Made by a program: the position numbers and the translations under genes
Shown: positions 18,846 to 63,403 of the stretch, in pieces
How positions within the stretch are numbered: the stretch's first letter is position 1
How the letters are laid out: the number at the start of each line of letters is the position of its first letter
DNA from: Acidobacteriota bacterium
Lineage (GTDB): Bacteria > Acidobacteriota > Vicinamibacteria > Vicinamibacterales > UBA2999
Direction of reading: 5' to 3'
Length of the DNA stretch: 64,000 bases
Assembly: GCA_023265015.1 (NCBI GenBank)
Contig: JAHFUO010000003.1
Location: forward strand, 2,866-66,865
The notes under the pieces: model-generated
What the model was told of the DNA's origin: nothing
The model's input: only the letters and a program-made list of their open reading frames with translations
Databases searched by the model: none

Positions 18846-18921
18846 AACCACGAAGAACACGAAGAACACGAAGGCAAAAACAAGAATGCTCTTCTTCGCG
18901 ACCTTCGCGTTTTTCGTGGTT
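18846..18921. repeat. CACGAAG-family intergenic palindrome, copy 1
   Basis: aaccacgaagaacacgaagaacacgaagg ... cttcttcgcgaccttcgcgtttttcgtggtt. The arms are about 80 percent complementary with a 9-nt periodicity. Confidence 0.8.
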
Positions 18922-18932
18922 CACAACGTCGA

Positions 18933-20087
18933 ATGAGAAAAGTCTGCGTCGTCGTCGGGTCGCGCGCCAATTACAGCAGCATCAAGTCCGTGATGTGCGC
19001 CGTCCGCGCGAATCCGGACCTGAAGCTGCAGCTCATCGTCGGCGCCTCGGCGCTGCTCGATCGGTTCGGATCGGTCGTGGACGTGATCGAGGCCGACGGG
19101 TTCGAGGCGGACGCCAAGGTCACGATGATCGTCGAAGGCGAAACGCCGGGGACGATGGCAAAGTCGACGGGCCTTGGCCTGCTCGAGCTTCCCACGATTT
19201 ACGGGATGCTCAAGCCGGACGTCGTCGTCAGCGTCGGCGATCGGTTCGAGACGATGGCGACCGCGGTGGCGGCGGCGTACATGAACATCCCGCTCGCGCA
19301 CACGATGGGCGGCGAGATCAGCGGCACGATCGACGAGAGCATTCGTCACGCGGTGACGAAGCTCTCGCATCTGCACTTCCCGGCGAACAGGCAGGCGGCG
19401 GAGCGGATCATCCGGATGGGCGAGGACCCAACGATGGTCCACGTGGTCGGATGTCCGCGCATCGACCTGGTGGCCGAGATCGCGAAAGGCGACGGCCACC
19501 TCGAGTCGCCCGACTGGCTCGAGCGCGAAGGCGCGGGCGCGCACATCACGCTCGACACGCCATTCCTTCTCGTGAGCCAGCATCCTGTGACGACCGAGTA
19601 CGGCCAGGGCGAGCCGCAGATCGTCGAGACGCTGGCGGCGCTCCACGATCTGCGGATGCCGACGATCATGCTCTGGCCGAACGCCGACGCCGGCTCCGAG
19701 GACGTCTCGCGCGGCATGCGGAAGTTCCGCGAGAAGTACCGGCCGGAGTACATCCGCTTCTACAAGAACTTTCCGATCGAGACCTACGCACGGCTGATGC
19801 TGAGTTGCGGGTGCGCTCTCGGCAACTCGAGCGCGCCGCTCCGCGAGGGCGCGTACATGGGGGTGCCGTCGGTGAACATCGGCACGCGCCAGCAGGGGCG
19901 TGACCGGGCGGACAACGTCGTGGACGTCCCGCACGAGCGGCGCGCGATCGTCGCGGCGGTGAAAAGCCAGCTCGCGCACGGCCGGTATCCGTCGAACCAC
20001 CTGTACGGCGACGGCGATGCCGGCGGCCGCATCGCGAAGATTCTCGTAGAGTCGCCGCTTCGCGTCCAGAAGCGGTTGGCCTACTAA
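18933..20087 (+). CDS. neuC: UDP-N-acetylglucosamine 2-epimerase, hydrolysing (NeuC/LegG-type), copy 1
   Basis: VCVVVGSRANYSSIKSV, VVSVGDRFETMATAVAAAYMNIPLAHTMGGEISGTIDESIRHAVTKLSHLHF. The GGE..G..DE..RH..TK motif marks the hydrolysing type rather than WecB. Confidence 0.85.
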   Translation: MRKVCVVVGSRANYSSIKSVMCAVRANPDLKLQLIVGASALLDRFGSVVDVIEADGFEADAKVTMIVEGETPGTMAKSTGLGLLELPTIYGMLKPDVVVSVGDRFETMATAVAAAYMNIPLAHTMGGEISGTIDESIRHAVTKLSHLHFPANRQAAERIIRMGEDPTMVHVVGCPRIDLVAEIAKGDGHLESPDWLEREGAGAHITLDTPFLLVSQHPVTTEYGQGEPQIVETLAALHDLRMPTIMLWPNADAGSEDVSRGMRKFREKYRPEYIRFYKNFPIETYARLMLSCGCALGNSSAPLREGAYMGVPSVNIGTRQQGRDRADNVVDVPHERRAIVAAVKSQLAHGRYPSNHLYGDGDAGGRIAKILVESPLRVQKRLAY

Positions 20088-20155
20088 AACCACGAAGGCC
20101 ACGAAGACCACGAAGGAACATTTGGGTCTTTCGTGTCCTTCGAGACTTCGTGGTT
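20088..20155. repeat. CACGAAG-family intergenic palindrome, copy 2
   Basis: aaccacgaaggccacgaagaccacgaagga acatttggg tctttcgtgtccttcgagacttcgtggtt. Starts directly after the neuC stop. Confidence 0.8.
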
Positions 20156-20166
20156 GATACAACACA

Positions 20167-20871
20167 TTGCAGATATTGGGTGTGATTCCGGCGCGCGGAG
20201 GCTCGAAGGGGATTCCCAACAAGAACCTCGCGACGGTGTGCGGACGTCCGCTGCTCGCGTACACGGCAGATGCCGTGAAGCAGAGCACGCGACTCACGCG
20301 CGCCATCGTCAGCACCGATGACGAGCGGATTGCGGACTGCGCCAGGTCGCTCGGCCTCGAGGTGCCGTTCATGCGTCCCGCCTCGCTCGCAGCGGACGAT
20401 ACGCCCATGCTTCCGGTGCTGCAGCACGCCCTCGGCACGTTGAAATCAGATGGGTTCGAGGCCGACATCGTCGTGCTGCTCCAGCCGACATCGCCGCTGC
20501 GACGAGGCGAGCACATCGACGCTGCCGTCGACTGGCTCCAGCGTGCCGGCGGCGAATCAGTGGTGTCAGTTGTCGAGGTGCCGCATCAGTTCAGTCCGGT
20601 ATCGGTCATGCGCGTTGACGATGGCTATTTGTTTCCGTTTCTCGACGGACCCCCGATCGTGCGCCGACAGGACAAACCGCGCCTCTATGCGCGTAACGGG
20701 CCTGCCGTTCTTGCGGTGCGGGCATCCGTGCTTGTCGGCGGGTCGCTCTACGGCAACAAGTCGTGGCCGCTCGTCATGAAGCAGGAAGAGTCGCTCGACG
20801 TCGATACGCCATGGGATCTGTCGCTGGTCGAATTCGCGCTGACCGCGCGCATCAATGCAAATTCCTTATAG
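20167..20871 (+). CDS. neuA: Acylneuraminate/nonulosonate cytidylyltransferase (NeuA/LegF/PseF-type), copy 1
   Basis: GVIPARGGSKGIPNKNLATVCGRPLLAYT...VSTDDERIADCARSLGLEVPFMRPASLAADDTPMLPVLQHAL...LLQPTSPLRR. TTG start, uncertain by a few codons. Confidence 0.85.
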   Translation: MQILGVIPARGGSKGIPNKNLATVCGRPLLAYTADAVKQSTRLTRAIVSTDDERIADCARSLGLEVPFMRPASLAADDTPMLPVLQHALGTLKSDGFEADIVVLLQPTSPLRRGEHIDAAVDWLQRAGGESVVSVVEVPHQFSPVSVMRVDDGYLFPFLDGPPIVRRQDKPRLYARNGPAVLAVRASVLVGGSLYGNKSWPLVMKQEESLDVDTPWDLSLVEFALTARINANSL

Positions 20872-21859
20872 GCGAGTGTCCGAGTATCAGCCGGTCGATG
20901 TCAGCCGGCTGCGCCCCGGGCGCTCGTACAAGAGCCTGATCGAGAAGCGCACGCACCCGATCGACGATCTCGTCGCGCGGTTCGGCCGCATTCCCGAGCA
21001 GCTGCTCACGCGCCGCGCATGTCCCACGTGCGGCAGCACGGACGAGTCGCTCGAGCTCGAGAAGGATCACATGCGGATCGTCCGCTGCAAGGCGTGCGAT
21101 CTCGTGTACGTGAATCCCACGTTCGACGAGGCGCACTACAAGGAGGTCTACGCGTCACAGGCGTACCAGGACATCGTTCGCGATCTCGGCATCACCAGCC
21201 ACGAGTATCGCGCGGGACGATTCGGAACCGAGCGCGTCGGCCTGATGGCAGAGCACCTCCGCATGCCCAACGGCAGCACGCCGCGCTATCTCGACGTCGG
21301 ATGCAGCACCGGGTTCGTCGTGGAAGCGGCGCGCGACAAGGGGTGGGATGCGATCGGCATCGATCTCAATCCATCTGCGATTGAGTACGGCCGCACCCGG
21401 GGTCTCGATCTTCGCACCGTCGCACTCGAGGATGCGGGTTTCGCACCGGCCAGCTTCGACGCCGTGTCGCTCTTCGATGTGCTCGAGCATCTGCTCGATC
21501 CGCGGCGAACGCTCCGCGCGTGCGCGGATCTGCTGGCGCCGGGCGGCATCCTGTTTCTCTATGTGCCGAACTTCGACTCCGCATCGCGACTGCTGATGGG
21601 CGCCAACGCGCACTTCATCTGGCCGACGCATCACCTGAACTACTACACGCCCACGACGATCCGCGACCTGATGCTGCGCCACGGCCTCACGCCGGAGCTG
21701 ATCGTCACCGAGGGGCTCGATATCGAGGACTACCTCTGGTACCGCCGCGAGGTCCTCAATCGCAGCGACGATGGGATGGCGGAGATCGCGGACGTGCTGC
21801 AGTTCCTCGCGAACGCCGGCTGCTACGGGAAAAACCTGAGGGTGATCGCGCGCAAATGA
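20855..21859 (+). CDS. SAM-dependent methyltransferase with N-terminal zinc ribbon
   Basis: CPTCGS...CKACDLVYVNP; YLDVGCSTGFVVEAA...FDAVSLFDVLEHLLDP...GGILFLYVPN...HHLNYYT. Confidence 0.8.
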   Translation: MQIPYRRVSEYQPVDVSRLRPGRSYKSLIEKRTHPIDDLVARFGRIPEQLLTRRACPTCGSTDESLELEKDHMRIVRCKACDLVYVNPTFDEAHYKEVYASQAYQDIVRDLGITSHEYRAGRFGTERVGLMAEHLRMPNGSTPRYLDVGCSTGFVVEAARDKGWDAIGIDLNPSAIEYGRTRGLDLRTVALEDAGFAPASFDAVSLFDVLEHLLDPRRTLRACADLLAPGGILFLYVPNFDSASRLLMGANAHFIWPTHHLNYYTPTTIRDLMLRHGLTPELIVTEGLDIEDYLWYRREVLNRSDDGMAEIADVLQFLANAGCYGKNLRVIARK

Positions 21860-23604
21860 AGTTTCTCTTTACCGCGCTGCATTTTGCGAACTACCGGAAC
21901 TTCGAGTCGGTGATCCGCGATCTTGCGTCGCGCGGCCACGAAGTGCACCTCCTGGCCGACGAGGAGGAGAGCTTTGGCGGACAGGCGCTCGTCGAGCGGC
22001 TCGCGGCCGAGTACCCGGCCGTCACGTGGGGCTGGACGCCGTCGCCGGCGGAGGAGCCGTGGTTTCCCGTCGCGCAGAAGCTCCGGTTCGCGCTCGACTA
22101 CGTCCGCTACCTCGATCCGCAGTACGCCGAAGCAAGAAAACTGCGGCTGCGCAACATCGAGCGCACGCCGCGCATCGTGCGCTGGATGACGTCAGGCATC
22201 GGTGGCGCCGTTGTCGGACACCGTGCCATCGCGGGCGTCCTCAAGGCCGCGGAGCGGATGCTGCCGCGCAGTCGCGCGATCACGCGGATGCTCGAAGAGC
22301 AACGTCCCGACGCCGTGCTGCTGACGTCGCTCACGTTCTCGCGCTCGCTCGCGATGGACCAGTTGAAAGCGGCACGCGCGCTCGGCATTCCGACCGCGGC
22401 ATGCATCATGAGCTGGGACCATCTCTCGAGCAAGGCGCTTGTGCACATTCCGCCCGACAAGACGATCGTCTGGAACGACGTGCAGAAGCGCGAGGCGTCG
22501 GAGATGCACGGCATCCGCGACGACAGCGTCGTCGTCACCGGCGCGCAGTGTTACGACCAGTGGTTCGAGAAGAAGCCTGCGCGCTCGCGCGAGGAGTTCT
22601 GCCGGGCGGTGGGCCTCGATCCGTCGAAGCCGTTTGTGCTCTACGTCTGCTCGGCCATGAGTCCGGTGCCGGATCCGGTCGAACCCGTGTTCGTGAAGGA
22701 GTGGATCGAGGCGGTGCGCGCGAGCGGCGATCCGGCGCTGCGGACCGCGGGCGTGCTCGTCCGCCCGCACCCCGAGCGGGTCCGCGAGTGGAGCGGCGTC
22801 AGCCTCGACGGTCTCGAGCACGTCGTCGTGCACGGGCGCACGCCGATCGACAGCGACGCCAAGGCCGATTATTTCGACTCGCTGTACTACAGCAGCGCGG
22901 TCGTGGGTCTGTGCACCAGCGTGTTTGTCGAGGCGGCGATCGTCGGTCGTCCCGTGCTGACAATGCTGTTGCCCGCGTATCGCATGCACCAGGACGGCAT
23001 GGCGCACTTCCGCTACCTGCTGAACGTCGAAGGCGGATTGCTTCACACGGCGCCCGACGTCCCCGCGCACCTCGCGCAGCTGGCTGACGCGATGAAGGAC
23101 GCCGGCTCGCGCGATGCGCGCAATCGCCGCTTCCTCACCGCGTTCGTCCGCCCGCAGGGGCTCGACATGCCATCTACGCCGCGCTTCGTTGAAGCGGCGG
23201 AGCAGCTGGCACGAAGCGGCCGCCGCGATCCGGATCCACTGTTGACGCGCCCATCGCCGATCCGCGCGATCGTCGGGCGTCTTGCCGTCGCCGGAACAAG
23301 CGGCATCGGCGCATGGCTGCTGATGGACAGCTTCGACGAGCAGCGTGCCATGAGCGAGCGCGAGCGGGAGCAGCAGAAGCGCGCGGTCCTTGACGAGCGC
23401 GCGGCGCGCTGGGAAGCCGAGCGGCGCGAACGCGACGAGAAGCTGCGGCGCAAGCAGGCGCAGCGCGACGCGAAGACGCGGATCCAGACGAAGAGAGAGC
23501 ACAAGCAGCAGTGGCGGCGCTGGCGCTACGCGCTCGGGACGAGCGGAGCCGTGGCGCGGTTGAAGGGCGGCCTCAAGCTGCTGATCGGGGCGCGCCACCA
23601 GTGA
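21856..23604 (+). CDS. Family A protein (GT-B-like, RPHP motif) with charged C-terminal helix
   Basis: ATGA overlap with the upstream gene. MKFLFTALHFANYRNFESVIRDLASRGHEVHL, SWDHLSSKALV, VTGAQCYDQWF, VLVRPHPERVREW, VVGLCTSVFVEAAIVGRPV, DGMAHFRYLL. Tail SEREREQQKRAVLDERAARWEAERRERDEKLRRKQAQRDAK. Confidence 0.75.
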   Translation: MKFLFTALHFANYRNFESVIRDLASRGHEVHLLADEEESFGGQALVERLAAEYPAVTWGWTPSPAEEPWFPVAQKLRFALDYVRYLDPQYAEARKLRLRNIERTPRIVRWMTSGIGGAVVGHRAIAGVLKAAERMLPRSRAITRMLEEQRPDAVLLTSLTFSRSLAMDQLKAARALGIPTAACIMSWDHLSSKALVHIPPDKTIVWNDVQKREASEMHGIRDDSVVVTGAQCYDQWFEKKPARSREEFCRAVGLDPSKPFVLYVCSAMSPVPDPVEPVFVKEWIEAVRASGDPALRTAGVLVRPHPERVREWSGVSLDGLEHVVVHGRTPIDSDAKADYFDSLYYSSAVVGLCTSVFVEAAIVGRPVLTMLLPAYRMHQDGMAHFRYLLNVEGGLLHTAPDVPAHLAQLADAMKDAGSRDARNRRFLTAFVRPQGLDMPSTPRFVEAAEQLARSGRRDPDPLLTRPSPIRAIVGRLAVAGTSGIGAWLLMDSFDEQRAMSEREREQQKRAVLDERAARWEAERRERDEKLRRKQAQRDAKTRIQTKREHKQQWRRWRYALGTSGAVARLKGGLKLLIGARHQ

Positions 23605-24626
23605 CGCCGCGCACCGTGCTCGGCATGACGCTCTACAACAACGCAGGGCATCTGCGCGAAGCAACCGACTCGATCCTCGCCCAGACGAACGCCGACTTCG
23701 CGCTGTTGATGCTCGACGATGGATCGAGCGACGAGGCGGAGGCGATCGCGCGCGAATACGAGCGGCGCGATGCACGCGTGCGCTACCGGCGGCATGGGCA
23801 GCGGCAGGGGATGGTGCCCACCTGGAAGGAAGTGGTCGAGATCGCCCGCCGGGAATATCCGCACGCCGAGTATTTCTCGTGGGTCAGCGATCACGATCGC
23901 TGGAATCCGCAGTGGCTCGCGCGCATGGTTGCGGAGCTCGACGCGCATCCTGCGGTGGTGCTCGCGTACCCGTTCACGCTGCGCATCGATGAACACGGAG
24001 AGCTGACGGATAAGGAGCCGCGAGTGTTCGACACGGCAGGCGTTGCGGATCAACGCGAACGCTGGCGCCGCTTCTGCTGGAACGGCTTCGGTTCGGGCGA
24101 CATGGTGTACGGCCTGATGCGCCTTCGAGCGCTGGAAGCGGCCGGCATCTTTCGTCCCGTGCTCAACCCCGATCGCCTGCTCATCGCGGAGCTCACGCTT
24201 CAGGGCGAGGTTCGGCAGGTCGCGGAGCCGCTGTGGTCGCGCAGGCAATCGAGCGTCGGCAGCGTGACGCGTCAGGGCGCCTCGCTCTTCGCCGGCGAGA
24301 CGCCGCCGCGCTTCGCGTGGCCTCCCTCACTCCAGCACGCCGTGATCCTGCGGCGCGGGGGCGTTGGGGCGTCGATGATTGCGACCTACGTCGTTGCCTC
24401 GGCCTGGCGCGCCACGCGCAAGACCGACACGTCGAAGAGCATCGGCCGCGGCGCCGACCACGCGCACTTCGTGAAGAAGGTCGTCAAGAAGGCCTTTCGC
24501 CACGCCGTCTACTGCACGCTGGTCGGTGCGCGCATGCTGGCCGGACGCAGCCGCCGCATCGGCCGCAAGGTCGTCTACGAAATCCTGATGTTCACGCACC
24601 GCACGGGGCTGCGCGGCAACAAGTGA
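23601..24626 (+). CDS. GT2-family glycosyltransferase
   Basis: LGMTLYNNAGHLREATDSILAQTNADFALLMLDDGSSDEAEAIAREY...WVSDHDRW. Start placed at GTG 23601 (GTGA overlap). Confidence 0.7.
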   Translation: MTPRTVLGMTLYNNAGHLREATDSILAQTNADFALLMLDDGSSDEAEAIAREYERRDARVRYRRHGQRQGMVPTWKEVVEIARREYPHAEYFSWVSDHDRWNPQWLARMVAELDAHPAVVLAYPFTLRIDEHGELTDKEPRVFDTAGVADQRERWRRFCWNGFGSGDMVYGLMRLRALEAAGIFRPVLNPDRLLIAELTLQGEVRQVAEPLWSRRQSSVGSVTRQGASLFAGETPPRFAWPPSLQHAVILRRGGVGASMIATYVVASAWRATRKTDTSKSIGRGADHAHFVKKVVKKAFRHAVYCTLVGARMLAGRSRRIGRKVVYEILMFTHRTGLRGNK

Positions 24627-26185
24627 AGGTCCTGTTCGCCGCGCTGCATTACGGCTACTTCCGGAACCTCGAGTCGGTGGTCGACGAGCTCGCGCGGCGC
24701 GGGCACGACATTCATCTGACCGCCGAGCGCCCCGACTCGGCGTTGGGCGGGCGCTCGATCGTCGAGCGGCTGGCGGCCAGCCACGGACACGTCACGTTCG
24801 GCATGATGCCGCGGCGCGAGCGCGCGTATTTCTTTCTTGCCTCGAAGCTTCGACTCTCGCTCGACTACCTCCGCTACCTGCAGCCCGCCTACGCGAAAAC
24901 ACCGGCGCTTCGCCGCCGCGCGCGCGTGCGGACGCCCCGCGGCCTGCTCCGGGTGCTGCGCCTGCCGCTGCTGGCGACGCCCGGCGGCCGGCGGCTCGTG
25001 TCGCGCGCGCTCGACAGCGTCGATCACGCGATTCCGCCAAGCCCCGCCATCGATCGGTTCGTCGACGAGCAGCGTCCCGACCTCGTGATCATCACCCCGC
25101 TCGTCGGCGTCGTCGCCTCGTCGCAGCTCGACCTGCTGCGCAGCGTGCAGGCGCGACGCGTGCCTGCGGCCGTCTGCGTGTGGAGCTGGGATCACCTCTC
25201 GAGCAAGGCGATCATCCGCGACCTTCCCGATCGCCTGCTCGTCTGGAACGACGTGCAGAAGCGAGAAGCGATCGAGATGCACGGCGTTCCCCCCGATCGC
25301 GTCGTCGTCACCGGCGCCCAGTGTTTCGATCGCTGGTTCGATCGGCAGCCGGCGCGCGGTCGCGCGGAGTTCGCGCGCCGCGTCGGGTTTCCCGACGATC
25401 GGCCCTACGTGCTGTGGGTGTGTTCAGCGCTCTTTCCCGGGAGCCCGTCGGAAGCGGAGTTCGTGATGAAGTGGGCCGCGCACCTGCGCGCCTCGTCCGA
25501 TCCGCGCATCCACGGGGCGGCGATTCTGATTCGCCCGCATCCCTCGCGTGCGCGCGAGTGGGAGTCCGTTGACTGGCGCAGCGTCAGCGGCGTGGCGTTC
25601 CGGGGAGGCAACCCGATAGACGAGGAGTCGCGCGGGGACTACTACGATTCGCTGCACCACAGCGCCGCCGTTGTGGGCCTCAACACCAGCGCGTTCATCG
25701 AGGCCGGCATCGCGCAGCGTCCGGTGATGGCGATTCTCCCCGCGGAGTTCAAGGCAAACCAGGAAGGGACGCTGCACTTCCGCTACCTGACTGAAGGCGG
25801 ATTGCTGACCACGTCGCGATCGCTCGACGAGCACGAGCGTCAGCTTGCCGCGATTCTCGCGGGCCCGCCGACCTCCGTCATGCAGCGGCAGCGGGGATTC
25901 ATCGAGTCGTTCGTGCGGCCGCGAGGCCTGACCGTGTCGGCGACGACGGTCATGGCCGACGAGCTGGAGCAGCTGGCAGCGGCCGGGCCGGCGCGCGCGC
26001 CGAGCGCCGTGCCGCTGACCGGCAGGCTCGGGCTCGCGATGCTTCGCGCGTTCGCGCGCGTCCCGGTGGGACGCCGGCTGCTGCTCGACGAGCGCGAGGT
26101 CAAGGCCAGGAAGCGGCGCGCCGAAGAGGAAGGACGAAGCGCCAAGAAAGAAGAGCCGCGCGGAGCCGCCGACATCGCCCGATGA
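24623..26185 (+). CDS. Family A protein (GT-B-like, RPHP motif)
   Basis: GTG 24623 (GTGA overlap). VKVLFAALHYGYFRNLESVVDELARRGHDIHL, SWDHLSSKAII, VTGAQCFDRWF, ILIRPHPSRAREW, VVGLNTSAFIEAGIAQRPV, EGTLHFRYL. Basic tail KARKRRAEEEGRSAKKEE. Confidence 0.75.
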   Translation: MKVLFAALHYGYFRNLESVVDELARRGHDIHLTAERPDSALGGRSIVERLAASHGHVTFGMMPRRERAYFFLASKLRLSLDYLRYLQPAYAKTPALRRRARVRTPRGLLRVLRLPLLATPGGRRLVSRALDSVDHAIPPSPAIDRFVDEQRPDLVIITPLVGVVASSQLDLLRSVQARRVPAAVCVWSWDHLSSKAIIRDLPDRLLVWNDVQKREAIEMHGVPPDRVVVTGAQCFDRWFDRQPARGRAEFARRVGFPDDRPYVLWVCSALFPGSPSEAEFVMKWAAHLRASSDPRIHGAAILIRPHPSRAREWESVDWRSVSGVAFRGGNPIDEESRGDYYDSLHHSAAVVGLNTSAFIEAGIAQRPVMAILPAEFKANQEGTLHFRYLTEGGLLTTSRSLDEHERQLAAILAGPPTSVMQRQRGFIESFVRPRGLTVSATTVMADELEQLAAAGPARAPSAVPLTGRLGLAMLRAFARVPVGRRLLLDEREVKARKRRAEEEGRSAKKEEPRGAADIAR

Positions 26186-29981: not shown

Positions 29982-29998
29982 GCCTTGGGCCCTGAGCC
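29922..29998. repeat. GGCTCAAG/GAGCC-family palindrome, copy 1
   Basis: ggctcaaggctcacggctcaagcctcaggcgg cttt agccttaggccccttgagccctaagccttgggccctgagcc. About 8-nt periodicity. Overlaps the 3' end of the upstream CDS and ends 4 nt before ATG 30003. Confidence 0.8.
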
Positions 29999-30002
29999 TT
30001 CC

Positions 30003-32282: not shown

Positions 32283-32311
32283 ACGAATGGTGAATACGCG
32301 CGAATGTCCCG

Positions 32312-33310: not shown

Positions 33311-33311
33311 A

Positions 33312-34001: not shown

Positions 34002-34004
34002 ATC

Positions 34005-34084: not shown

Positions 34085-34099
34085 AAGAGGTCTTGAGTT

Positions 34100-48509: not shown

Positions 48510-48516
48510 GGATCGA

Positions 48517-50693: not shown

Positions 50694-50710
50694 GCCCTGA
50701 GCCCCGAGCC
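50691..50710. repeat. Solo GAGCC-unit array (right-arm type of the GGCTCAAG/GAGCC family)
   Basis: tgagccctgagccccgagcc. Begins with the upstream stop codon and ends 3 nt before ATG 50714. No complementary left arm seen. Confidence 0.6.
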
Positions 50711-50713
50711 GAC

Positions 50714-51646: not shown

Positions 51647-51647
51647 A

Positions 51648-52595: not shown

Positions 52596-52620
52596 GCGGG
52601 GCGTAAAGCCCCGCCCTACG
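52591..52620. repeat. Hairpin-CCTACG family element (near-perfect palindrome)
   Basis: cgtaggcggggc gtaaa gccccgccctacg. Contains the upstream TAG stop. Confidence 0.8.
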
Positions 52621-52636
52621 ACGTCGGAACATCTGC

Positions 52637-52710
52637 ACGTAGGGCGCCCCTTTACGGGGCGCCATCGGGAATCCAGACGTAGGGCGCCCCTTTACGGGGC
52701 GCCATCGGGA
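52637..52710. repeat. Two identical 34-bp hairpin-CCTACG elements in opposite orientation to 32216, 40-bp period
   Basis: acgtagggcgcccctttacggggcgccatcggga at 52637-52670 and again at 52677-52710. Each carries the hairpin ggcgcccc-tttac-ggggcgcc. Ends 3 nt before ATG 52714. Confidence 0.9.
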
Positions 52711-52713
52711 GAA

Positions 52714-54602: not shown

Positions 54603-54608
54603 ACACGA

Positions 54609-54644
54609 TCAACGCCCAACGCCAAACTTTCAACTCCCAAGGCG
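54609..54644. repeat. Solo CCAAC-unit half element (left-arm type of the 37547 palindrome)
   Basis: tcaacgcccaacgccaaactttcaactcccaaggcg vs tccaacgaccaacgtccaactcccaggcg at 37546-37574. No TTGGG arm follows. Confidence 0.6.
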
Positions 54645-54697
54645 CAATCCTCTCAGCGATTCCGTCGACAATCCCGAACCAGATCGGCAGCGACGAT

Positions 54698-56116: not shown

Positions 56117-56197
56117 GGGGTCGGGAGTCATTACAAGAATCGAAATCGAGGTCAGTTGGCGTCGTTTATTTCGATTCTCGTAATGACTCCCGACCCC
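56117..56197. repeat. 30-bp-stem hairpin (1 mismatch, 21-nt loop)
   Basis: ggggtcgggagtcattacaagaatcgaaat (56117-56146) pairs with atttcgattctcgtaatgactcccgacccc (56168-56197). Starts right after the TAA stop and ends 6 nt before ATG 56204. Confidence 0.9.
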
Positions 56198-56203
56198 ATC
56201 ACA

Positions 56204-57010
56204 ATGCCATCCGCAGTCGCACTCATCCCAGCACGCCAGGGTTCCAAGCGCGTTCCGGGCAAGAACGTCCGCGTGCTGCAGGGGCATCCGATGCTCGCGT
56301 ACACGATCGCGCCGGCGCTCGAGAGCGGCGTGTTCACGTCGGTGATCGTGTCGACCGACTCGGAGGAGATCGCAGGAATCGCACGGCACTACGGCGCCGA
56401 GGTCCCGTTTCTGCGGCCGGCCGAGTTCGCCGGCGACACGTCGCCCGATATCGAGTGGGTCGACTACACGCTCGGCGAGCTGAAGCGCCGCGGCCGGACG
56501 TGGGACGGCTTTTCGCTGCTGCGCCCGACGAGCCCGTTCCGCACCGCCGACACGATCCGCCGGGCGTGGGCGCGATTCATCGCGCACGATGGCGCCGATT
56601 CGCTGCGCGCCATCGAGAAATGCGGGCAGCATCCCGCCAAGATGTGGGTGCTGCAGGGCGACCGGATGATTCCATTGATGAAGCCGTCGGATCCGGGCGC
56701 GCCGCCGTGGCACAGCATGCCGTACCAGGCGCTCCCGCCCATTTACGTGCAGAACGCGTCGCTCGAGATCGCCTGGACGCGCGTCGTCCCGGAGACGCAC
56801 ACGATCGCCGGCGCTGTGCTCGTCCCGTTCCTCACGGAAGGCTACGAGGGATTCGATATCAACGATCCGCACGACTGGATGATTGCCGAGCGGCTGCTCG
56901 CCGACGGTGCGGTGACGTTGCCGCGCGTCGCGCAGGAACCGTACGGCGCTGTCCGCCTCTACGACGCGTCGCACGACGATGAAGAACGGCCGAGACACCA
57001 GCGACCGTAG
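56204..57010 (+). CDS. neuA: Acylneuraminate/nonulosonate cytidylyltransferase (NeuA-type), copy 3
   Basis: MPSAVALIPARQGSKRVPGKNVRVLQGHPMLAYT...VSTDSEEIAGIARHYGAEVPFLRPAEFAGDTSPDIEWV...LLRPTSPFR. Track start 56156 lies inside the hairpin. Confidence 0.8.
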   Translation: MPSAVALIPARQGSKRVPGKNVRVLQGHPMLAYTIAPALESGVFTSVIVSTDSEEIAGIARHYGAEVPFLRPAEFAGDTSPDIEWVDYTLGELKRRGRTWDGFSLLRPTSPFRTADTIRRAWARFIAHDGADSLRAIEKCGQHPAKMWVLQGDRMIPLMKPSDPGAPPWHSMPYQALPPIYVQNASLEIAWTRVVPETHTIAGAVLVPFLTEGYEGFDINDPHDWMIAERLLADGAVTLPRVAQEPYGAVRLYDASHDDEERPRHQRP

Positions 57011-57042
57011 AGGCGGCTCTTCAGACCCGCCTGGGAAAACGA

Positions 57043-59016
57043 ATGGGTGACCTGCAGACAGAACAGGGCGAGAGCTTAGAGCTCCGATACGTACCCGTCT
57101 CGGAATTCACGCGCGTGCTCGGCGCGAAGGCGGACGCCGCGGCACGTGCCGAAGCCTTCGCGGCGCTCGCGCGGATCAACACGCTGTACATGATCGCGGG
57201 CGCGTGGTCGGGTCACATCGGCACGAGCTTCAGCTCGCTCGAGATCATGAGCTGGCTGTTTCTCAACGAGCTTCGCGATCTCGACAAGGGGCCTGACGAC
57301 TGCGACGTGTTCTTCTCGTCGAAGGGTCACGACGCTCCAGCGCTCTATTCGGTCCTGATCGGTCTCGGCCTGCTTCCCGGAGACAAGCTGCACCAGCTCC
57401 GCCGCCTCGGCGGATTGCCGGGACATCCGCACGTCGAGACCCCGTTCGTCCAGGCGAACACGGGGTCGCTCGGCATGGGCATCTCCAAGGCAAAGGGGAT
57501 GGCGCTGGCAAACCGGTTGGCGAGCGCCCCGCGCCGCATCTTCGTGCTCACCGGCGACGGCGAGCTGCAGGAAGGCCAGTTCTGGGAGTCGCTCGGATCG
57601 GCGGCGAACATGGGTCTCGGCGAGATCGTCGCGATCGTCGATCACAACAAGATTCAGTCGGACACATGGGTCAAGACAGTCAGCGACCTCGGCGATGTCG
57701 AGGCAAAGCTGCGCGCGTTCGGCTGGCACGTGAGCCGGTGTGACGGCCACGACATGCGCGCGATCGAGCGCGCGTTCCGCGCCCTCGATGCGGTGAAGGA
57801 TCGGCCGAAGGTCATCGTCGCCGACACCGTCAAGGGCCGCGGCGTGTCGTTCATGGAGGGACCGAACGCCCTGAAGAAGGAGAGCGACCTCTACCTGTTT
57901 CATTCGGGCGCGCCGCCGGAGCAGCAGTACATCGACGGCCTGAAGGAGCTGCTCGACGCCGCGGGACGGGCACTCGAGGAGCTCGGCCTCGGATCGCTCA
58001 CGACCGAGACGCGCACGCGCAACCCGCGCCGCGAGCCGCGCGACACGCACAACCTGGTCGCGGCCTACGGCAAGGCGCTCGTGCAGCAGGCGGAGCGCCA
58101 TCCGCATCTCATCGTCCTCGATGCGGATCTGATCAAGGACTGCGGCCTGCTGGACTTTGCCGCGAAGTTCCCCGAGCGGTTTGTCGAGTGCGGCATCGCG
58201 GAGCAGGACATGGCGTCGATGGCGTGCGGCATGGCGCGCCGCGGCGCGCTGCCGATCGCTCATTCGTTCGCGTGCTTCCTGTCCACGCGGCCGAACGAGC
58301 AGATCTATAACCAGTGCAGCGAGGGATCGAAGGCGATCTACGTCGGCTCGCTTGCCGGTGTGCTCCCGGGCGGACCCGGCCACTCGCACCAGTCCGTGCG
58401 CGACATCAGCGCGCTGAGCGCCGTGCCCAACCTGCTGATGGCGGAGCCGGCGGCCGAAGGCGAGGTGCACGCGCTGGTCGATTACCTCGTCAACGACGCG
58501 GCGGAGAGCGCGTACCTGCGCCTCGTGTCGGTGAAGTGGCCGCTGCCGTTCACGTATCCCATCAACACCCGCGTGCAGCCGGGCAGGGGCTGGATCGTGC
58601 GGCCGGGCAACGACGCGGTCGTGTTCGGGTACGGGCCGTGGCTGCTGTCGAACGCATGGCACGCCGCGGAGGACATCGAGACGACGACGGGAGCGCGTCT
58701 CCGGATCGTCGACCTGCCGTGGCTGAATCGCGTGGACGCCGTCTGGCTGCGCGACACGATCGGCTCCACCCGCACGATCATCACCCTCGACAATCATTAC
58801 GTGCACGGTGGACAGGGAGAGATGCTGGGCGCGGCGATCGCGGAGCTCAGCCTCGAGCCGGCCGCGCGCGTCTCGCGCATCGGCGTCACCGGGCTGCCCG
58901 AGTGCGGCACCAATGACGAGGTGCTCGCGTACCACGGTCTCGACGTGGCCGGGCTGGTGACGCAGTTCCGCGCGGCGCTCGGGCGGAAGGCGGGCACGGT
59001 CTCGCAGATTGCGTGA
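57043..59016 (+). CDS. Transketolase-family ThDP enzyme; N-terminal (PP) and C-terminal (Pyr + TKC) parts in one 657-aa chain
   Basis: GHIGTSFSSLEIM, FFSSKGHDAPALYSVL, GSLGMGISKAKGMA, LTGDGELQEGQFWESL...IVDHNKIQSD, then FVECGIAEQDMASMACGMA. Confidence 0.8.
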   Translation: MGDLQTEQGESLELRYVPVSEFTRVLGAKADAAARAEAFAALARINTLYMIAGAWSGHIGTSFSSLEIMSWLFLNELRDLDKGPDDCDVFFSSKGHDAPALYSVLIGLGLLPGDKLHQLRRLGGLPGHPHVETPFVQANTGSLGMGISKAKGMALANRLASAPRRIFVLTGDGELQEGQFWESLGSAANMGLGEIVAIVDHNKIQSDTWVKTVSDLGDVEAKLRAFGWHVSRCDGHDMRAIERAFRALDAVKDRPKVIVADTVKGRGVSFMEGPNALKKESDLYLFHSGAPPEQQYIDGLKELLDAAGRALEELGLGSLTTETRTRNPRREPRDTHNLVAAYGKALVQQAERHPHLIVLDADLIKDCGLLDFAAKFPERFVECGIAEQDMASMACGMARRGALPIAHSFACFLSTRPNEQIYNQCSEGSKAIYVGSLAGVLPGGPGHSHQSVRDISALSAVPNLLMAEPAAEGEVHALVDYLVNDAAESAYLRLVSVKWPLPFTYPINTRVQPGRGWIVRPGNDAVVFGYGPWLLSNAWHAAEDIETTTGARLRIVDLPWLNRVDAVWLRDTIGSTRTIITLDNHYVHGGQGEMLGAAIAELSLEPAARVSRIGVTGLPECGTNDEVLAYHGLDVAGLVTQFRAALGRKAGTVSQIA

Positions 59017-59026
59017 CAGCGTCGTG

Positions 59027-59815
59027 ATGACCGTTCTCTTCTGGGACATCGACGGCACGCTGCTGACGACCGGCAGGGCCGGGGTGCCGGCGTGGGAAGC
59101 CGCGGTTCGCGAGACGACGGGGAAGGACTTCGAGCTGTCGTCGATTCGCGTGCCGGGGCTCACCGATTATCAGATCGCGGTGCAGACGTTCGAGCTTCTC
59201 GGCGTGACGGCGACCGCCGAGCTGCTCGCGCGGATGGTCACGCGTTACGAGGAGATGCTGCCGTCGACGCTGCCGCTCAAGCAGGGACGCGTGCTGCCGA
59301 ACGTGCGCGAGGTTCTCGAGGCGCTGCGGGACCGCGACGATGTGCGGTCGTACCTGCTGACCGGCAACACGCGCGCCGGCGCGCGCGCGAAGCTGACACA
59401 CTACGACCTGTTCCAGTATTTTCCTGACGGGGCGTTTGCCGAGGACCAGGGGAACCGGGCGTCGATCGCGACGCGCGCGCTGGAGCTGGCGCGGCGCGGC
59501 GGCCCGGTTGCCGGCGATCGGATCTTCGTGATCGGCGACACGCCGCACGACATCGAGTGCGCGGCCGCCATCGACGCGCGCACGATCGCCGTCGCGACCG
59601 GCGGCTACACGGTGGAGGAGCTGTCGACGCATCAACCCTGGCGCGTGTGTGCCGAGCTTCCGCCTCCCTCCGAGTTTCTGCCGATGATCGACGAGCCGCG
59701 ATCGGCATCCGCTCGGGAGATGGGCCGGCTGTCCGCCTCCGCGCGAGGCGCTACGGACGGACCGGCCGAAGCACAGGGCGAAGGCGGGAAGCCCGCCCCT
59801 ACGGTGCGCGGATGA
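59027..59815 (+). CDS. HAD-superfamily hydrolase (phosphatase candidate)
   Basis: MTVLFWDIDGTLL (DxDGT), LLTGNTR, FVIGDTPHDIECA. Low-complexity C-terminal tail. Confidence 0.75.
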   Translation: MTVLFWDIDGTLLTTGRAGVPAWEAAVRETTGKDFELSSIRVPGLTDYQIAVQTFELLGVTATAELLARMVTRYEEMLPSTLPLKQGRVLPNVREVLEALRDRDDVRSYLLTGNTRAGARAKLTHYDLFQYFPDGAFAEDQGNRASIATRALELARRGGPVAGDRIFVIGDTPHDIECAAAIDARTIAVATGGYTVEELSTHQPWRVCAELPPPSEFLPMIDEPRSASAREMGRLSASARGATDGPAEAQGEGGKPAPTVRG

Positions 59816-61530
59816 GGCATGTCATCCGGAACTTTCCGGCGCTCTGGCGGGCGAGCCGCCTCGCACGGCGTTGGTACTACGCGCGATGGAACGCCTATCC
59901 GGACTGGCGGGAGCCGCTGGCGGCCGATCGCGGGCTGTGGGACTCCGCGCGCACCGCGGCGCAGGGCGGGCCGCGCGTGCTGATGGCGACGTCGATCGGC
60001 TCGTACGCGCACGCGGTGACGCTCGAGAGCGCGCTCGCGGCAGCGCTCACGTTCCGCGGCGCCGAGGTCCACGCACTCCTCTGCGACGGCGCGATGACCG
60101 CCTGCGCGGAATGCGAAGCGTCGCTCTATCCGAACCTGAAGCACTTCGCCGACCACGGCCCGTCGCGCGATTTGTGCCGTGACTGCCGGTGGCCCGCCGA
60201 GCGCGTCTACGCGCAGCTTGGCCTCAAGGTCCATCGCTTCGGCGACTGGCTCACCCCCGCCGATCGAGCAGACGCGCATCGCATCGCGTCGACGCTGGCT
60301 GTCGGCGAGGTCGAACACTTCAGCCTCGACGGCCTCGCGATTGGCGAGCACGCGCATGCCGGCGCGCTTCGGTTCTTCGCGACCGGCTCGCTGGATCAGG
60401 AACCCTACTCCGAGGCCATCCAGCGCCGTTACCTCGAATCGGCCCTGCTGACCGCCTCCGCCACGAGGCGGCTCATGCGCGAAGTCGGGTTCTCCTCGGC
60501 GGTCTTCACGCACGGCATCTACGTGCCGTGGGGGATTGTCGGCGAGGTGGCGCGTCGCGAGGGCGTGCGCGTCTCCAACTGGAACGTCGCCTATCGGAAG
60601 CGCCGCTTCATCTTCAGCCACGGCGACACGTACCATCACACGCTGCTGAGCGAGCCGCGCGAGCACTGGGAGCAGCTCGAGATCTCCCCGGCGCAGGAGC
60701 GCGAGCTGATGCAGTACCTCGCAAGCCGCCGCGAGGGGATGTTCGACTGGATCGTCTTCCATCGGCCGACGAAACAGGACCCGCAGGAGATCGCCCGGGC
60801 AATCGGACTCGACCCGTCGAAGCCGGCGATCGGCCTGCTGACCAACGTGTCGTGGGACGCGCAGCTGCATTATCCCGCCAACGCGTTCCCGAACATGCTC
60901 GAGTGGCTCGTGCAGACATGCGAGTACTTCGCGACGCGTCCGGACCTGCAGCTGCTCATTCGCGTGCACCCGGCGGAGATCAGCGGCTTCCCGCCGTCGC
61001 GCCAGCCGATCCTCGCGGAGCTGCGCACGCGCCTCCCGCGCCTCTCGCCGAACATCATCGTCGTGCCGCCGGAGAGCGGCTTGAGCACGTACGCGCTCAT
61101 GTCGCTGTGCAATTCGGCGATCATCTATGGCACCAAGATGGGCGTGGAGCTGACGAGCGTCGGGCTGCCGGTGATCGTGGCGGGCGAAGCGTGGATCCGC
61201 AACAAGGGGATCACGCTCGATGCGACCACGCCTGAGGAATATTTCCGGCTGCTGTCGCAGCTCCCGTGTGCCGATCGCCTCGCCTCGGCGCAGCTGGCTC
61301 GCGCGCGCCGCTACGCGTATCACTTCTTCTTCAACCGCATGATTCCGCTGCCGTTCATCGAGCCGAAGGCCGGATATCCGATCTACCGCCTGAAGCTCGA
61401 TCGGCTGCAGCAGCTGCTGCCGGGCGCGTCCCCGGGGCTCGACACGATCTGCAACGGCATCCTCGCCAGCGCGCCGTTCGTGCTGCGCGACAAGGGGAGC
61501 AGGACGCCGGAGCTTACCGCCGCCCGTTGA
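59812..61530 (+). CDS. Cys-rich GT-B-like protein with HP motif (capsule-biosynthesis KpsS/KpsC-like candidate; distant relative of family A)
   Basis: ATGA overlap. VLMATSIGSYAHAVTLESALAAALTFRGAEVHALLCDGAMTACAECEA...CRDCRW; LLIRVHPAEISGF; CNSAIIYGTKMGVELTSVGLPVIVAG. Confidence 0.5.
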   Translation: MRHVIRNFPALWRASRLARRWYYARWNAYPDWREPLAADRGLWDSARTAAQGGPRVLMATSIGSYAHAVTLESALAAALTFRGAEVHALLCDGAMTACAECEASLYPNLKHFADHGPSRDLCRDCRWPAERVYAQLGLKVHRFGDWLTPADRADAHRIASTLAVGEVEHFSLDGLAIGEHAHAGALRFFATGSLDQEPYSEAIQRRYLESALLTASATRRLMREVGFSSAVFTHGIYVPWGIVGEVARREGVRVSNWNVAYRKRRFIFSHGDTYHHTLLSEPREHWEQLEISPAQERELMQYLASRREGMFDWIVFHRPTKQDPQEIARAIGLDPSKPAIGLLTNVSWDAQLHYPANAFPNMLEWLVQTCEYFATRPDLQLLIRVHPAEISGFPPSRQPILAELRTRLPRLSPNIIVVPPESGLSTYALMSLCNSAIIYGTKMGVELTSVGLPVIVAGEAWIRNKGITLDATTPEEYFRLLSQLPCADRLASAQLARARRYAYHFFFNRMIPLPFIEPKAGYPIYRLKLDRLQQLLPGASPGLDTICNGILASAPFVLRDKGSRTPELTAAR

Positions 61531-63314
61531 TATATCTCCCAATCGCGTTCCTCATCTCGCTGGCTGCCAGCGTCGCTCTGTGCGCGATCGTTCGCCGCGC
61601 GGCGCCGGCGATCGGGGCGATCGTTCCGCCCAGCGCCGACCGCTGGCACAGCGAGCCGACGCCGACGATGGGCGGCCTGGCGATCGCGGCGGCGACGGTG
61701 CTTGGGTTCGGCGCGGTGGTGGCGCGCGTGGACGTGACGGCGGTGCCCGCCGCATGGCTGCCGATTCCGCTTGCCGCGGTTGCCATGTTCATCGTCGGCG
61801 TGCTCGACGATCGCCTGCAGCTGTCGCCGCTGGCGAAGCTCGTGTCGTCGCTCATCATCGGGGCGTTTCTCGTGTTCTCGATGGCGACGAGACCGGACGC
61901 GGCGCTGCCATGGACCCACACCCTCGTCGCGACGATCTGGTTTGCAGGTGTGTGCCACGCGCTGAACTTGCTGGACAACATGGACGGGCTTGCCGCCGGC
62001 GTGGCGCTGATTGCCGCGGCGTTCCTGGCGTGGCTGCTCGCGCCGGCGCTCGGCGGCCCGCTCGTGCTGCTGCTCGTCGGCCTGTGCGGCGCGCTCCTGG
62101 GATTTCTGTACTGGAACCGTCCCCCGGCGCGCCTGTTCATGGGCGATTGCGGGAGCCTGTTCATCGGCGCCGTGCTCGCGGGAGCGTCGCTGACGCCGGC
62201 CCTGCAGGAGCGAAGCAGCTTTCCGTGGACGTCGGTGCTCGTCGTGGTCGTCCTGGTCGTGCCGCTGTTCGACACCGGGTTCGTGCTCGTGCTCCGGCGC
62301 TTCGCCGGCCGCAGCGCCACGCGCGGCGGCACCGATCACGTGTCGCATCGGCTCGTGTCGCTCGGCTTCTCGGAGCGAAGCGCCGTCCGCATCCTGTATC
62401 TCGTGGGAATCGTCGGCGGATTGACCGCGTGGGGGCTCGTGCTCGGCGGCATCGATCAGATGCTGCCGCTGGCGGCGCTTTTCGCCGTCGTCGTGACGCT
62501 GGTGGGAGTCTATCTCGCACGGGTGCAGGCGTACAACGCGCAGGACTTCGCGGCGCTCGAGAGCTCGTCGTTCGCGCCGCTCCTCAAGGACCTGACGTTC
62601 CGGTGGCACGCGGGCGAGGTGATGCTCGACCTGGTGCTGATCGCCGCGTGCTACTACTTCGCGTACCGCCTCCGCTTCGAGGGCGAGAGCCTCGACCACT
62701 TCCTCCCGTACTTCACCGCATCCCTGCCGGTCGTGCTCGGCTGCAAGCTCGCGTCGCTGTATGGCTCCGGACTGTACCAACGCTCGTGGGAGACCTTCGG
62801 CCTGCGCGACGTGGCGGTCGTGCTGCGGGGGGTGTTCATGGGTTCGCTGCTCTCGATCCTCGCCGCGGCCTATTTCTACCGCCTCGAGGGCTTCTCGCGC
62901 GTGGTCTTCATGCTCGATGCGCTGCTGCTGACGGTGGCGATCATCGGCACGCGCGCCTCGTTTCGCAGCATGAGCCTTGTCGCCGCATCGCGGAACAAGA
63001 GGAGCCGCCGCGTGCTCGTGTACGGCGCGGGCGCGTTCGGCCAGATGATCGTGCGCGAGATGCGCGCCAACACCGAGTGGGCGATGAACCCGGTCGCGTT
63101 CATCGACGACGACCCGACGAAGGCGCATCGCTGGATCATGGGCGTGCCGGTGCGCGGCGCGCTCGGCGAGCTCGAGGCGACGATGCGCCGCTACTCGGTG
63201 GACGAAGTGATCCTGAGCAGCCCGTCGATCAACGGCACGATCGAGCACCGGATTCGTGAAGTCTGCCTGGAGCTCGAGTGTCCCGTGCGCCGGCTTCACA
63301 TGGACATTCAGTGA
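61527..63314 (+). CDS. WecA/MraY-family polyprenyl-phosphate HexNAc-1-phosphate transferase fused to a C-terminal TM + Rossmann (CoA-binding-like) module
   Basis: VLDDRLQLSPLAKL, NLLDNMDGLAAG, LFMGDCGSLFIG. C-terminal RVLVYGAGAFGQMIVREM...AFIDDDPTKAHRWIMGVPVRG...VDEVILSSP resembles the N-terminal module of WbaP/PglF/CapD-type proteins. TTG 61527 start inferred (TTGA overlap). Confidence 0.7.
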   Translation: MIYLPIAFLISLAASVALCAIVRRAAPAIGAIVPPSADRWHSEPTPTMGGLAIAAATVLGFGAVVARVDVTAVPAAWLPIPLAAVAMFIVGVLDDRLQLSPLAKLVSSLIIGAFLVFSMATRPDAALPWTHTLVATIWFAGVCHALNLLDNMDGLAAGVALIAAAFLAWLLAPALGGPLVLLLVGLCGALLGFLYWNRPPARLFMGDCGSLFIGAVLAGASLTPALQERSSFPWTSVLVVVVLVVPLFDTGFVLVLRRFAGRSATRGGTDHVSHRLVSLGFSERSAVRILYLVGIVGGLTAWGLVLGGIDQMLPLAALFAVVVTLVGVYLARVQAYNAQDFAALESSSFAPLLKDLTFRWHAGEVMLDLVLIAACYYFAYRLRFEGESLDHFLPYFTASLPVVLGCKLASLYGSGLYQRSWETFGLRDVAVVLRGVFMGSLLSILAAAYFYRLEGFSRVVFMLDALLLTVAIIGTRASFRSMSLVAASRNKRSRRVLVYGAGAFGQMIVREMRANTEWAMNPVAFIDDDPTKAHRWIMGVPVRGALGELEATMRRYSVDEVILSSPSINGTIEHRIREVCLELECPVRRLHMDIQ

Positions 63315-63324
63315 TGCAGGTCAT

Positions 63325-63403
63325 GCCAAATGCAACATTCAAGATGCGAACACTGAGGCCGCAACCACGTCCTGTTTGCATTTTGCATTTTGCGTCTTGA
63401 ATT
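63325..63403. repeat. TTTGCAT-unit imperfect palindrome
   Basis: gccaaatgcaacattcaagatgcgaacac ... tgtttgcattttgcattttgcgtcttgaatt. Partial complementarity (attcaagatgcgaa / ttgcgtcttgaat) and three 7-nt tgcattt-like units. Confidence 0.55.

Follow-up and report, generated by a model that had tools for sequence, protein, structure and literature searches.

The gaps of a surface-glycan gene cluster in a 64,000-nt stretch of the genome of a soil acidobacterium of the order Vicinamibacterales (Acidobacteriota; here called the window) are very probably insertion sites of small dispersed palindromic repeats between genes that once abutted, and not parts of a control system specific to the cluster. 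In this same-strand cluster almost all gaps of at least 40 nt hold a palindrome that runs from the stop codon of one gene to the start codon of the next. The original prediction, made from the letters of the window alone, had recognised this edge-to-edge layout, which is confirmed by the gap sequences and by RNA folding, and had read it as an architecture that punctuates this particular operon into blocks. Similar filling is found throughout the genome, the ribosomal-protein operon included, and the reading as punctuation specific to this locus is not supported. The elements occur genome-wide, have the structure of families, are present, absent or replaced at orthologous junctions, and lack U-tracts. 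They would fall into three kinds, namely GTAG-tagged repetitive extragenic palindromic sequences (REPs), a palindrome with long terminal inverted repeats (TIRs) of which a copy with a Y1 transposase lies elsewhere in the genome, and unit-built palindromes resembling MITEs (miniature inverted-repeat transposable elements).

The window corresponds to C89:2866-66865 in the assembly numbering used here for C-contigs. The source assembly (3.18 Mb, 175 contigs, 65.7% G+C) is a metagenome-assembled genome (MAG) that is 92% complete, and its genes were called with a crude codon-usage finder trained on the genome itself. This finder misplaced some starts (30093 instead of 30003, and 56273 instead of 56204), and the genome-wide gap statistics inherit its error. 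Homologue N-termini support the starts that had been assigned at 20167, 30003, 34100 and 56204, while for the TTG assigned at 37620 they fit the GTG at 37626 better. The 42 junctions of the cluster comprise 16 exact 4-nt overlaps, 6 other overlaps, 9 gaps of 1-36 nt and 11 gaps of at least 40 nt. The earlier statement that genes overlap by 4 nt wherever an element is absent is thus right only in part.

Thirteen gap stretches were folded as RNA, and the folding energies were expressed as z-scores against 200 dinucleotide shuffles. Strong folding was seen for nine of the 13 (z -3.6 to -12.5, with 0-1 of the 200 shuffles as good), and the stems are 25-35 bp long with energies of -33 to -60 kcal/mol. 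An element begins 0-11 nt past the upstream stop, or contains that stop, and ends 1-15 nt ahead of the next start, the exceptions being 32282 and 54609-54644. These distances had been given in the original prediction and match the gap sequences, and its anatomy of mirrored 7-9-nt units belonging to several families was also correct. It had further described 50691-50710 and 54609-54644 as solo arms, and neither forms a hairpin (Table 1). Its list of gap sites was incomplete, the hairpin at 57011-57042 having been missed.

Table 1. Elements in the gaps of the glycan cluster, the cluster itself, and PF05635 genes lying in the loop between inverted arrays; z is the folding score of the stretch named
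Feature	Position	Strand	Folding or basis	Remarks
CACGAAG-family palindrome, termini AACCACGAAG...CTTCGTGGTT, three 9-nt units per arm	18846..18921	.	stretch 18835-18932, z -4.7	11 nt from upstream stop, 11 nt from next start
CACGAAG-family palindrome	20088..20156	.	stretch 20088-20166, z -5.0	adjoins stop TAA; 10 nt between its end and TTG 20167
GGCTCAAG/CTTGAGCC-family palindrome	29922..29998	.	stretch 29922-30002, z -3.9	
REP cluster: GC hairpin GGCCGGCTAAAGCCGGCC, CCTACG (= GTAG) tag, then three more GAGCCGGCCCCTACG units	32216..32282	.	stretch 32216-32311, z -0.6 overall, non-significant	one clear GC hairpin inside
GGCTCAAG/GAGCCC-family palindrome	33222..33310	.	stretch 33222-33311, z -6.1	only 1 nt before ATG 33312
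CACGAAG-family palindrome, four units per arm	34005..34091	.	stretch 34002-34099, z -4.8	
TTGACGAAT-family palindrome	36303..36392	.	stretch 36303-36399, z -4.7	
CCAAC / TTGGGAT palindrome	37537..37619	.	z -3.6	onset directly at end of stop TGA
Solo (CCTGAGC)x3 array	50689..50710	.	50691-50710, z +1.8, no hairpin	no inverted partner
Three GTAG-tagged REP hairpins: GCGGGGCGTAAAGCCCCGC, then 2x CGTAGGGCGCCCCTTTACGGGGCGCC	52593..52703	.	stretch 52596-52713, z -4.8	
Solo CCAAC-type array	54609..54644	.	z -0.3, no hairpin	
Near-perfect palindrome, 30-bp arms, conserved ~19-nt ends (GGGGTCGGGAGTCATTACG...)	56117..56197	.	stretch 56117-56203, z -12.5	
Small imperfect GC hairpin (GGCGGCTCTTCAGACCCGCC) in 32-nt gap	57011..57042	.		
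Weak palindrome, TTTGCAT/ATGCAAA units	63323..63402	.	stretch 63315-63403, z -2.0	inverted TTTGCAT arms 83% complementary; related copy on C151
Same-strand cluster, 43 genes	13943..64000	+	codon-based gene calls; Pfam	continues beyond window end
PF05635 gene	C78:5340-5717			
PF05635 gene	C140:14361-14726			
PF05635 gene	C68 11115-11429	reverse		
PF05635 genes in relatives	L210, L215, L216, L217, L219, L221			

Three of the elements reach into the gene in front of them. In the 29922 element the first 60 nt code for the final ~17-20 residues, and for the stop codon, of the open reading frame (ORF) 28854-29981, the 33222 element encodes the last codons (SRLKA) and the stop TAG of ORF 32312-33235, and the 36303 element encodes the last codons (MRLTN) and the stop TGA of ORF 35085-36314. 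The resulting C-terminal tails (29922-29981, 33222-33235 and 36303-36314) measure 5-20 residues, and homologues of the three genes are without them, having unrelated and variable tails at the same point instead. In a similar manner the GTAG tag of the first REP provides, at 52593-52595, the stop TAG of ORF 51648-52595. The remaining upstream genes retain their exact C-termini, with the insert directly past the stop. A further tail of this type was noticed in ribosomal protein S19 (C143:55318-55707), where it is encoded by a short tandem DNA repeat and seems to be a further case of a repeat taken up by a gene.

The orthologous junctions of relatives were compared on 80 metagenomic contigs anchored on the gene at 36400-37536, a junction being called tight when the gap was at most 25 nt or the genes overlapped. 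At six junctions that bear an element in the window, 150 of 197 cases in relatives were tight, 20 had gaps of 26-300 nt and 27 had extra genes. At nine junctions that are tight in the window, gaps of 26-300 nt were seen in 21 of 159 cases. The rates are thus equal (21/159 versus 20/197), which means that there are no conserved punctuation positions.

Individual junctions exhibit filled, empty and replaced sites side by side. Around the epimerase gene 18933-20087, relatives with 87-88% protein identity have junctions that overlap or measure 3-5 nt on both sides; the upstream spacer is 3-5 nt in these relatives, as it is in L013 and L014, and the downstream junction of the same gene is of the TAATG/TGATG type in most relatives, with unrelated short hairpins or arrays in L014, L025 and L034. 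The 32216 junction is tight in 26 of 27 relatives and holds a single REP in L095, and the 33222 element is missing in relatives, most of which have a gap of at most 22 nt. At the 34002 junction most relatives have an ATGA overlap as the empty site; L093, L098 and L172 carry a CACGGAG variant there, L095 has a CCAAC/TTGGGAG element that is unrelated, and elements of other types are present in L147 and L160. The 36315 junction is empty (ATGA overlap) in L093, L094, L099 and L102, and carries the TTGACGAAT element with varying unit counts in L095, L097, L098, L100 and L105. The 37537 junction is empty in 48 of 61 relatives and bears an element of the CCAAC/TTGGGAT family in L095, whereas L098 has a 19-nt remnant (GCCCGTTGGGTTTTGAGAT) consisting of only the two outer ends of a CCAAC/TTGGGA element, which looks like the product of a deletion between the arms. 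Among genomes of the same genus, the 56117 hairpin is missing at the syntenic junction in four (G006, G002, G011 and G009), and G006 has one REP at the 52596 junction, where the window has three, and a (CAAATCC)n array at the 54609 junction. Filled sites differ from empty ones by a complete element in a single step, and the swapping of families at orthologous gaps, which had been put forward as a check of the original prediction, was indeed seen, for example at the 34002 junction.

The occupancy of gaps across the genome was assessed by folding all 1073 gaps of 40-200 nt, with z below -3 counted as a hairpin. Hairpins were found in 32-33% of same-strand, 56% of convergent and 11% of divergent gaps. 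The original prediction had held that palindromes filling gaps at the same rate everywhere would be a generic genome feature and not a locus-specific one, and this is what was seen: the rate is similar across the genome, with same-strand gaps of 60-200 nt occupied in 30-41% of cases. Counted per junction, strong hairpins (8 of 42 junctions in the cluster versus 12% genome-wide) exhibited no significant enrichment of the cluster (p=0.13). The divergent region in front of the cluster (13572-13942, ~370 nt) is without a palindrome, which fits the genome-wide rarity of elements between divergent genes. The scarcity of Shine-Dalgarno (SD) sequences, also pointed out earlier, is real, with an SD-like core upstream of only 9 of the 43 cluster genes, but is not specific to the cluster, since the value for all genes is 25% (13% in a control window).

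Non-coding sequence makes up 10.7% of the genome and is rich in short tandem repeats. Tandem Repeats Finder (TRF) returned 736 intergenic arrays of period 5-11, in which period 7 dominates (479 arrays, compared with 145 for period 8 and 85 for period 9). Array pairs in strict mirror arrangement numbered at least 166 and were built from ~50 unit types (median loop 18 nt, median length 88 nt), which is the layout of heptamer inverted repeats, that is, intergenic tandem 7-nt arrays in convergent orientation. The unit families in the best-folding gaps of the genome are CACGAAG, GGTGCTCGG/GAACC, GGGATTAG, GGCAGC, TTCGAAG, TTGACGAAT, GGTTGGTGG and others, and GGGGATT/GGGATTT units, which share their word with the Nostoc heptamer, rank with the most frequent in the TRF census. 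Tracts of three G are absent from the window units CACGAAG, TTGACGAAT, GGCTCAAG and TTTGCAT, and occur only in GGGATT-type families elsewhere in the genome. As many unit types are not G-rich, a quadruplex reading does not apply. Several palindromes have ~100-130 consecutive N at their centre (C112:9774-9906, C75:2991-3136, C117:38276-38396, C51:5990-6138, C149:8899-9046 and others). These either mark scaffold gaps at hairpins that stopped the assembler or are masked sequence, so that the repeat counts are minimum values.

The same filling is found in the ribosomal-protein operon (C143:44000-57800), where 12 of the 13 gaps of at least 70 nt hold unit-built palindromes of the GGCAGC type (z below -3.3). 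Pfam confirms L4, S19, L22, S8 and L6 in this operon, and the order is L4, L2, S19, L22 ... S8, L6. Such filling is unusual for the most conserved operon of bacteria.

One of the unit-built families, CACGAAG, has 51 copies in the genome, which share the termini (N)AACCACGAAG / CTTCGTGGTT(N) and have a length mode of about 80 nt (79-89). The arms consist of 3-4 units, each with a 7-nt core and a variable 2-nt spacer, and the copies have in common a loop motif and position-specific unit variants, with a median pairwise identity of 64% and a maximum of 87%. The family thus combines conserved terminal inverted repeats with a uniform small size, as expected of MITEs, and the unit-built palindromes in general behave as discrete, MITE-like families. 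Among 201 sampled Acidobacteriota genomes, 22 that belong to 15 genera have three-unit CACG(A/G)AG arrays (0 for a reversed control pattern), and in five of these 22 the AACCACG(A/G)AG terminus itself was confirmed.

The GC-stem plus CCTACG family of the cluster is made up of GTAG-tagged REPs in the sense of PMC3733652. The sequences at 32216-32239 (GGCCGGCTAAAGCCGGCCCCTACG) and 52593-52621 (GTAG+GCGGGGCGTAAAGCCCCGC...CCTACG) are GC-rich palindromes with a GTAG/CTAC tag, and genome-wide 188 of 1463 GC hairpins have such a tag no more than 8 nt away, versus 1.6% expected, an ~8-fold enrichment. Recurrent GC stems (GCCGGCCC x44, GGCCCGCC x38 and GGCGCCCC x17) are in line with dispersed REP families. 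Six PF01797 (Y1_Tnp) genes are present in the genome, on C161, C172, C150, C79, C114 and C145, and all of them have either hairpin repeats of their own or long inverted ends on their flanks. The gene on C114 encodes a REP-associated tyrosine transposase (RAYT) and is flanked by GGCCGGCTTTAGCCGGCC-type REPs (GGCCGGC...GCCGGCC) as at 32216, and is thus the cognate RAYT of the 32216 REP. The genes on C161, C150, C79 and C145 have other GC-rich hairpin repeats alongside; GC-hairpin repeats on both sides were counted for four Y1_Tnp genes, and C172 has the long inverted ends. For the GGCGCCCC sub-family, to which the 52596 element belongs, no RAYT was found in the genome. The codon-usage finder overlooked all but one of the six Y1 genes, which indicates an atypical codon use.

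The inverted ends on C172, GGGGTCGGGAGTCATTTCGAA, lie on both sides of a 210-aa Y1_Tnp ORF and form a TIR family with ~14 short, gene-less palindromes with GGGGTCGGGAGTCATTACG ends in the genome, one of which is the element at 56117-56197. Copies of the 56117 family have A/T-rich flanks and often adjoin TAA or ATG. Together with the C172 gene, the 56117 family has the TIRtron/TIR-repeat arrangement described in PMC3733652.

Taken as insertions, the elements would have arrived in an ancestral cluster that was packed stop-on-start, with ATGA-type overlaps or spacers of a few nt. Several repeat families dispersed in the genome would have inserted at or beside stop codons, and only insertions at junctions would persist, as insertions elsewhere would break genes; an insert just inside a gene end would supply its final codons and stop. 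With an ancestral spacer of ~0 nt the gap is the insert, which would account for the edge-to-edge fit. The elements are probably co-transcribed as stable hairpins and would not terminate transcription, given that almost all gaps of the ribosomal-protein operon hold them. The stems are long enough for RNase III substrates or exonuclease barriers, roles shown elsewhere for REPs and Correia elements, and if mRNA cleavage, decay or translational coupling were affected, this would presumably be a by-product and not the cause of their presence.

Several observations weigh against this account of the gaps as insertion sites. Counted per gap of at least 40 nt, the cluster is fuller than the genome (8 of 11 versus 32%, p=0.006). 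This excess we attribute to the cluster gaps being operon-internal and without promoters, which genome gaps also hold, although selection for hairpins would give the same figure. The 34002 junction has been hit by at least four families across lineages, and such recurrent hits could mean a favoured site. In alignments of filled and empty sites one possible target-site duplication was found, ATGAG at 36315, and none is clear at 37537, 34002, 20088 or 18835. The CACGAAG copies are old (at most 87% identity) and bear no sign of current activity. In the 92%-complete MAG, a search for an autonomous CACGAAG element, with termini pairs 300-5000 nt apart, returned none, and no transposase tied to the unit-built families was found.

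The same excess of filled gaps, together with the repeated hits by several families on one junction in different lineages, would also be in keeping with adaptive punctuation, in which the hairpins are kept to split the polycistronic mRNA into blocks that differ in stability or translation, acting for instance as barriers to 3' exonucleases or as sites for RNase III. Long stems exactly between stop and start and without U-tracts would be transcribed into the mRNA, and elsewhere REPs (malE-malF) and Correia and enterobacterial repetitive intergenic consensus (ERIC) elements serve as mRNA processing or stability elements. Nevertheless, we consider such a role improbable as the reason for their presence: positions are unconserved, with 76% of orthologous junctions tight and element-sized gaps equally common at junctions that are empty in the window, close relatives lack, swap or delete the elements, and the filling is the same in the ribosomal-protein operon and across the genome. 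Sense and antisense folding differ by -0.76 kcal/mol (p=0.17), and G-U counts are 836 versus 748, so that a sense-strand bias is not evident, albeit this is a weak test with which an RNA role is still compatible. A function as terminators or attenuators that divide the locus into separate transcription units is suggested by the strong tie of hairpins to the 3' ends of genes (56% of convergent, 32% of same-strand and 11% of divergent gaps), but appears very improbable. No T-run lies 3' of any cluster element, as an intrinsic terminator would require, and a consensus terminator scan gave 11 sites versus 9.0 +/- 3.5 in shuffles, a chance level, with none of the sites being a full element. The consensus scan for promoter-like sites 3' of elements gave 0, and with the next start 1-15 nt past the hairpin there is no room for a promoter; moreover, termination would be harmful in the ribosomal-protein operon, 12 of whose 13 gaps hold elements. 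No Rfam family matched the 64-kb window at the gathering score.

The arrays might also have grown in place by replication slippage and have been mirrored by template switching, with no movement at all. Unit numbers do vary between orthologous copies at the 36315 junction, solo arrays exist at 50689 and 54609, one REP copy in G006 corresponds to three locally amplified ones here, and heptamers dominate, like the over-represented heptamers of Xanthomonas and Nostoc (PMC4692102). Growth in place is nonetheless quite unlikely in our view, as the 51 CACGAAG copies agree in their termini and length, in the loop motif and in unit variants at particular positions, and an identical terminus is found in distant families of the phylum. 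The spacer dinucleotides differ between adjacent units, which slippage of 9-mers would not yield, and filled and empty sites differ by an entire element.

With the gaps read as insertion sites, the elements would be further representatives of intergenic palindromic repeat types that are already known. GTAG-tagged REPs, their assemblies as bacterial interspersed mosaic elements (BIMEs) or REP doublets forming hairpins (REPINs), and the associated RAYTs have been described (Di Nocera et al. 2013, PMC3733652; Bertels and Rainey 2011, PMC3116915). GTAG REPs often supply the TAG stop of the flanking gene, and proposed mRNA roles of REPs and Correia/ERIC elements are listed in the same work (PMC3733652). 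The elements at 32216-32282 and 52593-52703 resemble them as short GC-rich GTAG palindromes, mostly 3' of genes and within operons, and in supplying a TAG stop, in their locally amplified clusters and in a cognate Y1 gene flanked by the same hairpins. They differ in that the family sequences are lineage-specific, and 8 of the 14 gap elements of the cluster are of another type. TIRtrons, with TIR repeats associated with a TIR-associated tyrosine transposase (TIRYT), include a distinct group in Acidobacteria (PMC3733652), and the Y1 gene between long TIRs on C172 with its moderately abundant short palindromes of the same ends (~14) is like them.

For the unit-built palindromes the nearest likeness is to the heptamers GGGAATC of Xanthomonas, whose genomes have 70-75 convergent pairs each, and GGGGA(T/C)T of Nostoc (Rehm et al. 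2015, PMC4692102). Both are tandem 7-nt arrays that are intergenic, rare between divergent genes, often in inverted pairs and unconserved in position, and GGGGATT-type units are also present in this genome. In contrast, dozens of unit types are found here, many of them not G-rich, and CACGAAG, with its 7-nt core, variable 2-nt spacer and fixed termini and length, is MITE-like. The short tandemly repeated repetitive (STRR) heptamers of cyanobacteria are a related repeat type. Correia elements of Neisseria and ERIC elements, or intergenic repeat units (IRUs), of enterobacteria are MITEs that are co-transcribed and processed. The likeness to these lies in a length of 70-150 nt, terminal inverted repeats, positions near gene ends and in operons, long RNA hairpins, and presence/absence polymorphism between strains, and the difference in arms that are internally tandem here, without an autonomous partner or a clear target-site duplication. 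Rickettsia palindromic elements (RPEs) are likewise palindromic repeats in coding sequence, as at three gene ends here; unlike RPEs, the elements form only C-terminal tails and not internal in-frame insertions, and the sequences are unrelated.

A lead on mobilisation of the unit-built families is provided by PF05635, the '23S rRNA intervening-sequence protein' family of small, Avd-like four-helix bundles. All six PF05635 genes of the genome have an array within ~150 nt upstream, and three of the six lie between single inverted arms of one 7-8-nt unit (Table 1). The gene on C78 is bracketed by GGCTCAAG units, the family of 29922 and 33222, and the arms around the gene on L221 resemble the TTGACGAAT family. 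Of 10 PF05635 genes sampled from four distant Acidobacteriota, 8 likewise lie between inverted arrays of 7-8-nt units, the two arrays being separated by 385-495 nt. It is conceivable, if on balance rather doubtful, that the unit-built palindromes are gene-less partners of an undescribed gene-in-hairpin element with PF05635 in the loop, analogous to RAYT and REP. As a partner of the CACGAAG family PF05635 was rejected, since 0 of 29 PF05635 loci from these four distant genomes, which are rich in CACGAAG, are flanked by CACGAAG arrays. Nor is the bracketing an exclusive signature: other genes of the genome also lie between arrays of the same family, because the adjoining gaps hold full palindromes.

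The Pfam content of the cluster points to a nonulosonic-acid or surface-glycan pathway, with two NeuB, two UDP-GlcNAc 2-epimerases, CMP-sugar cytidylyltransferases, methyltransferases, glycosyltransferases, an NAD-dependent epimerase/dehydratase and an aldehyde dehydrogenase. Extra genes of 0.3-5 kb were observed at several junctions (28854|30003, 35085|36400, 36400|37620 and 38069|38739) in one fifth to one half of the relatives (L093-L172). The glycan cluster would thereby be shuffled by gene cassettes besides being colonised by repeats.

For Vicinamibacterales, and patchily for Acidobacteriota, an operon-internal gap is usually an inserted repeat rather than a regulatory region. Annotation is affected as well, as repeats may encode gene ends and assemblies break inside these palindromes. 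The cluster offers a clean natural example of selfish palindromes at the only permissive sites of packed operons, the ribosomal-protein operon included, and the many matched filled and empty junctions are a resource for the effect of a 30-bp hairpin between coupled genes. For the unit-built families, with their 7-nt core, fixed ends and patchy spread over the phylum, the PF05635 link is a concrete lead on mobilisation. If that link is true, and if the hairpins are cut from RNA by RNase III like rRNA intervening sequences, insertions would be tolerated even in ribosomal-protein operons, and they would in effect cut operon mRNAs into pieces.

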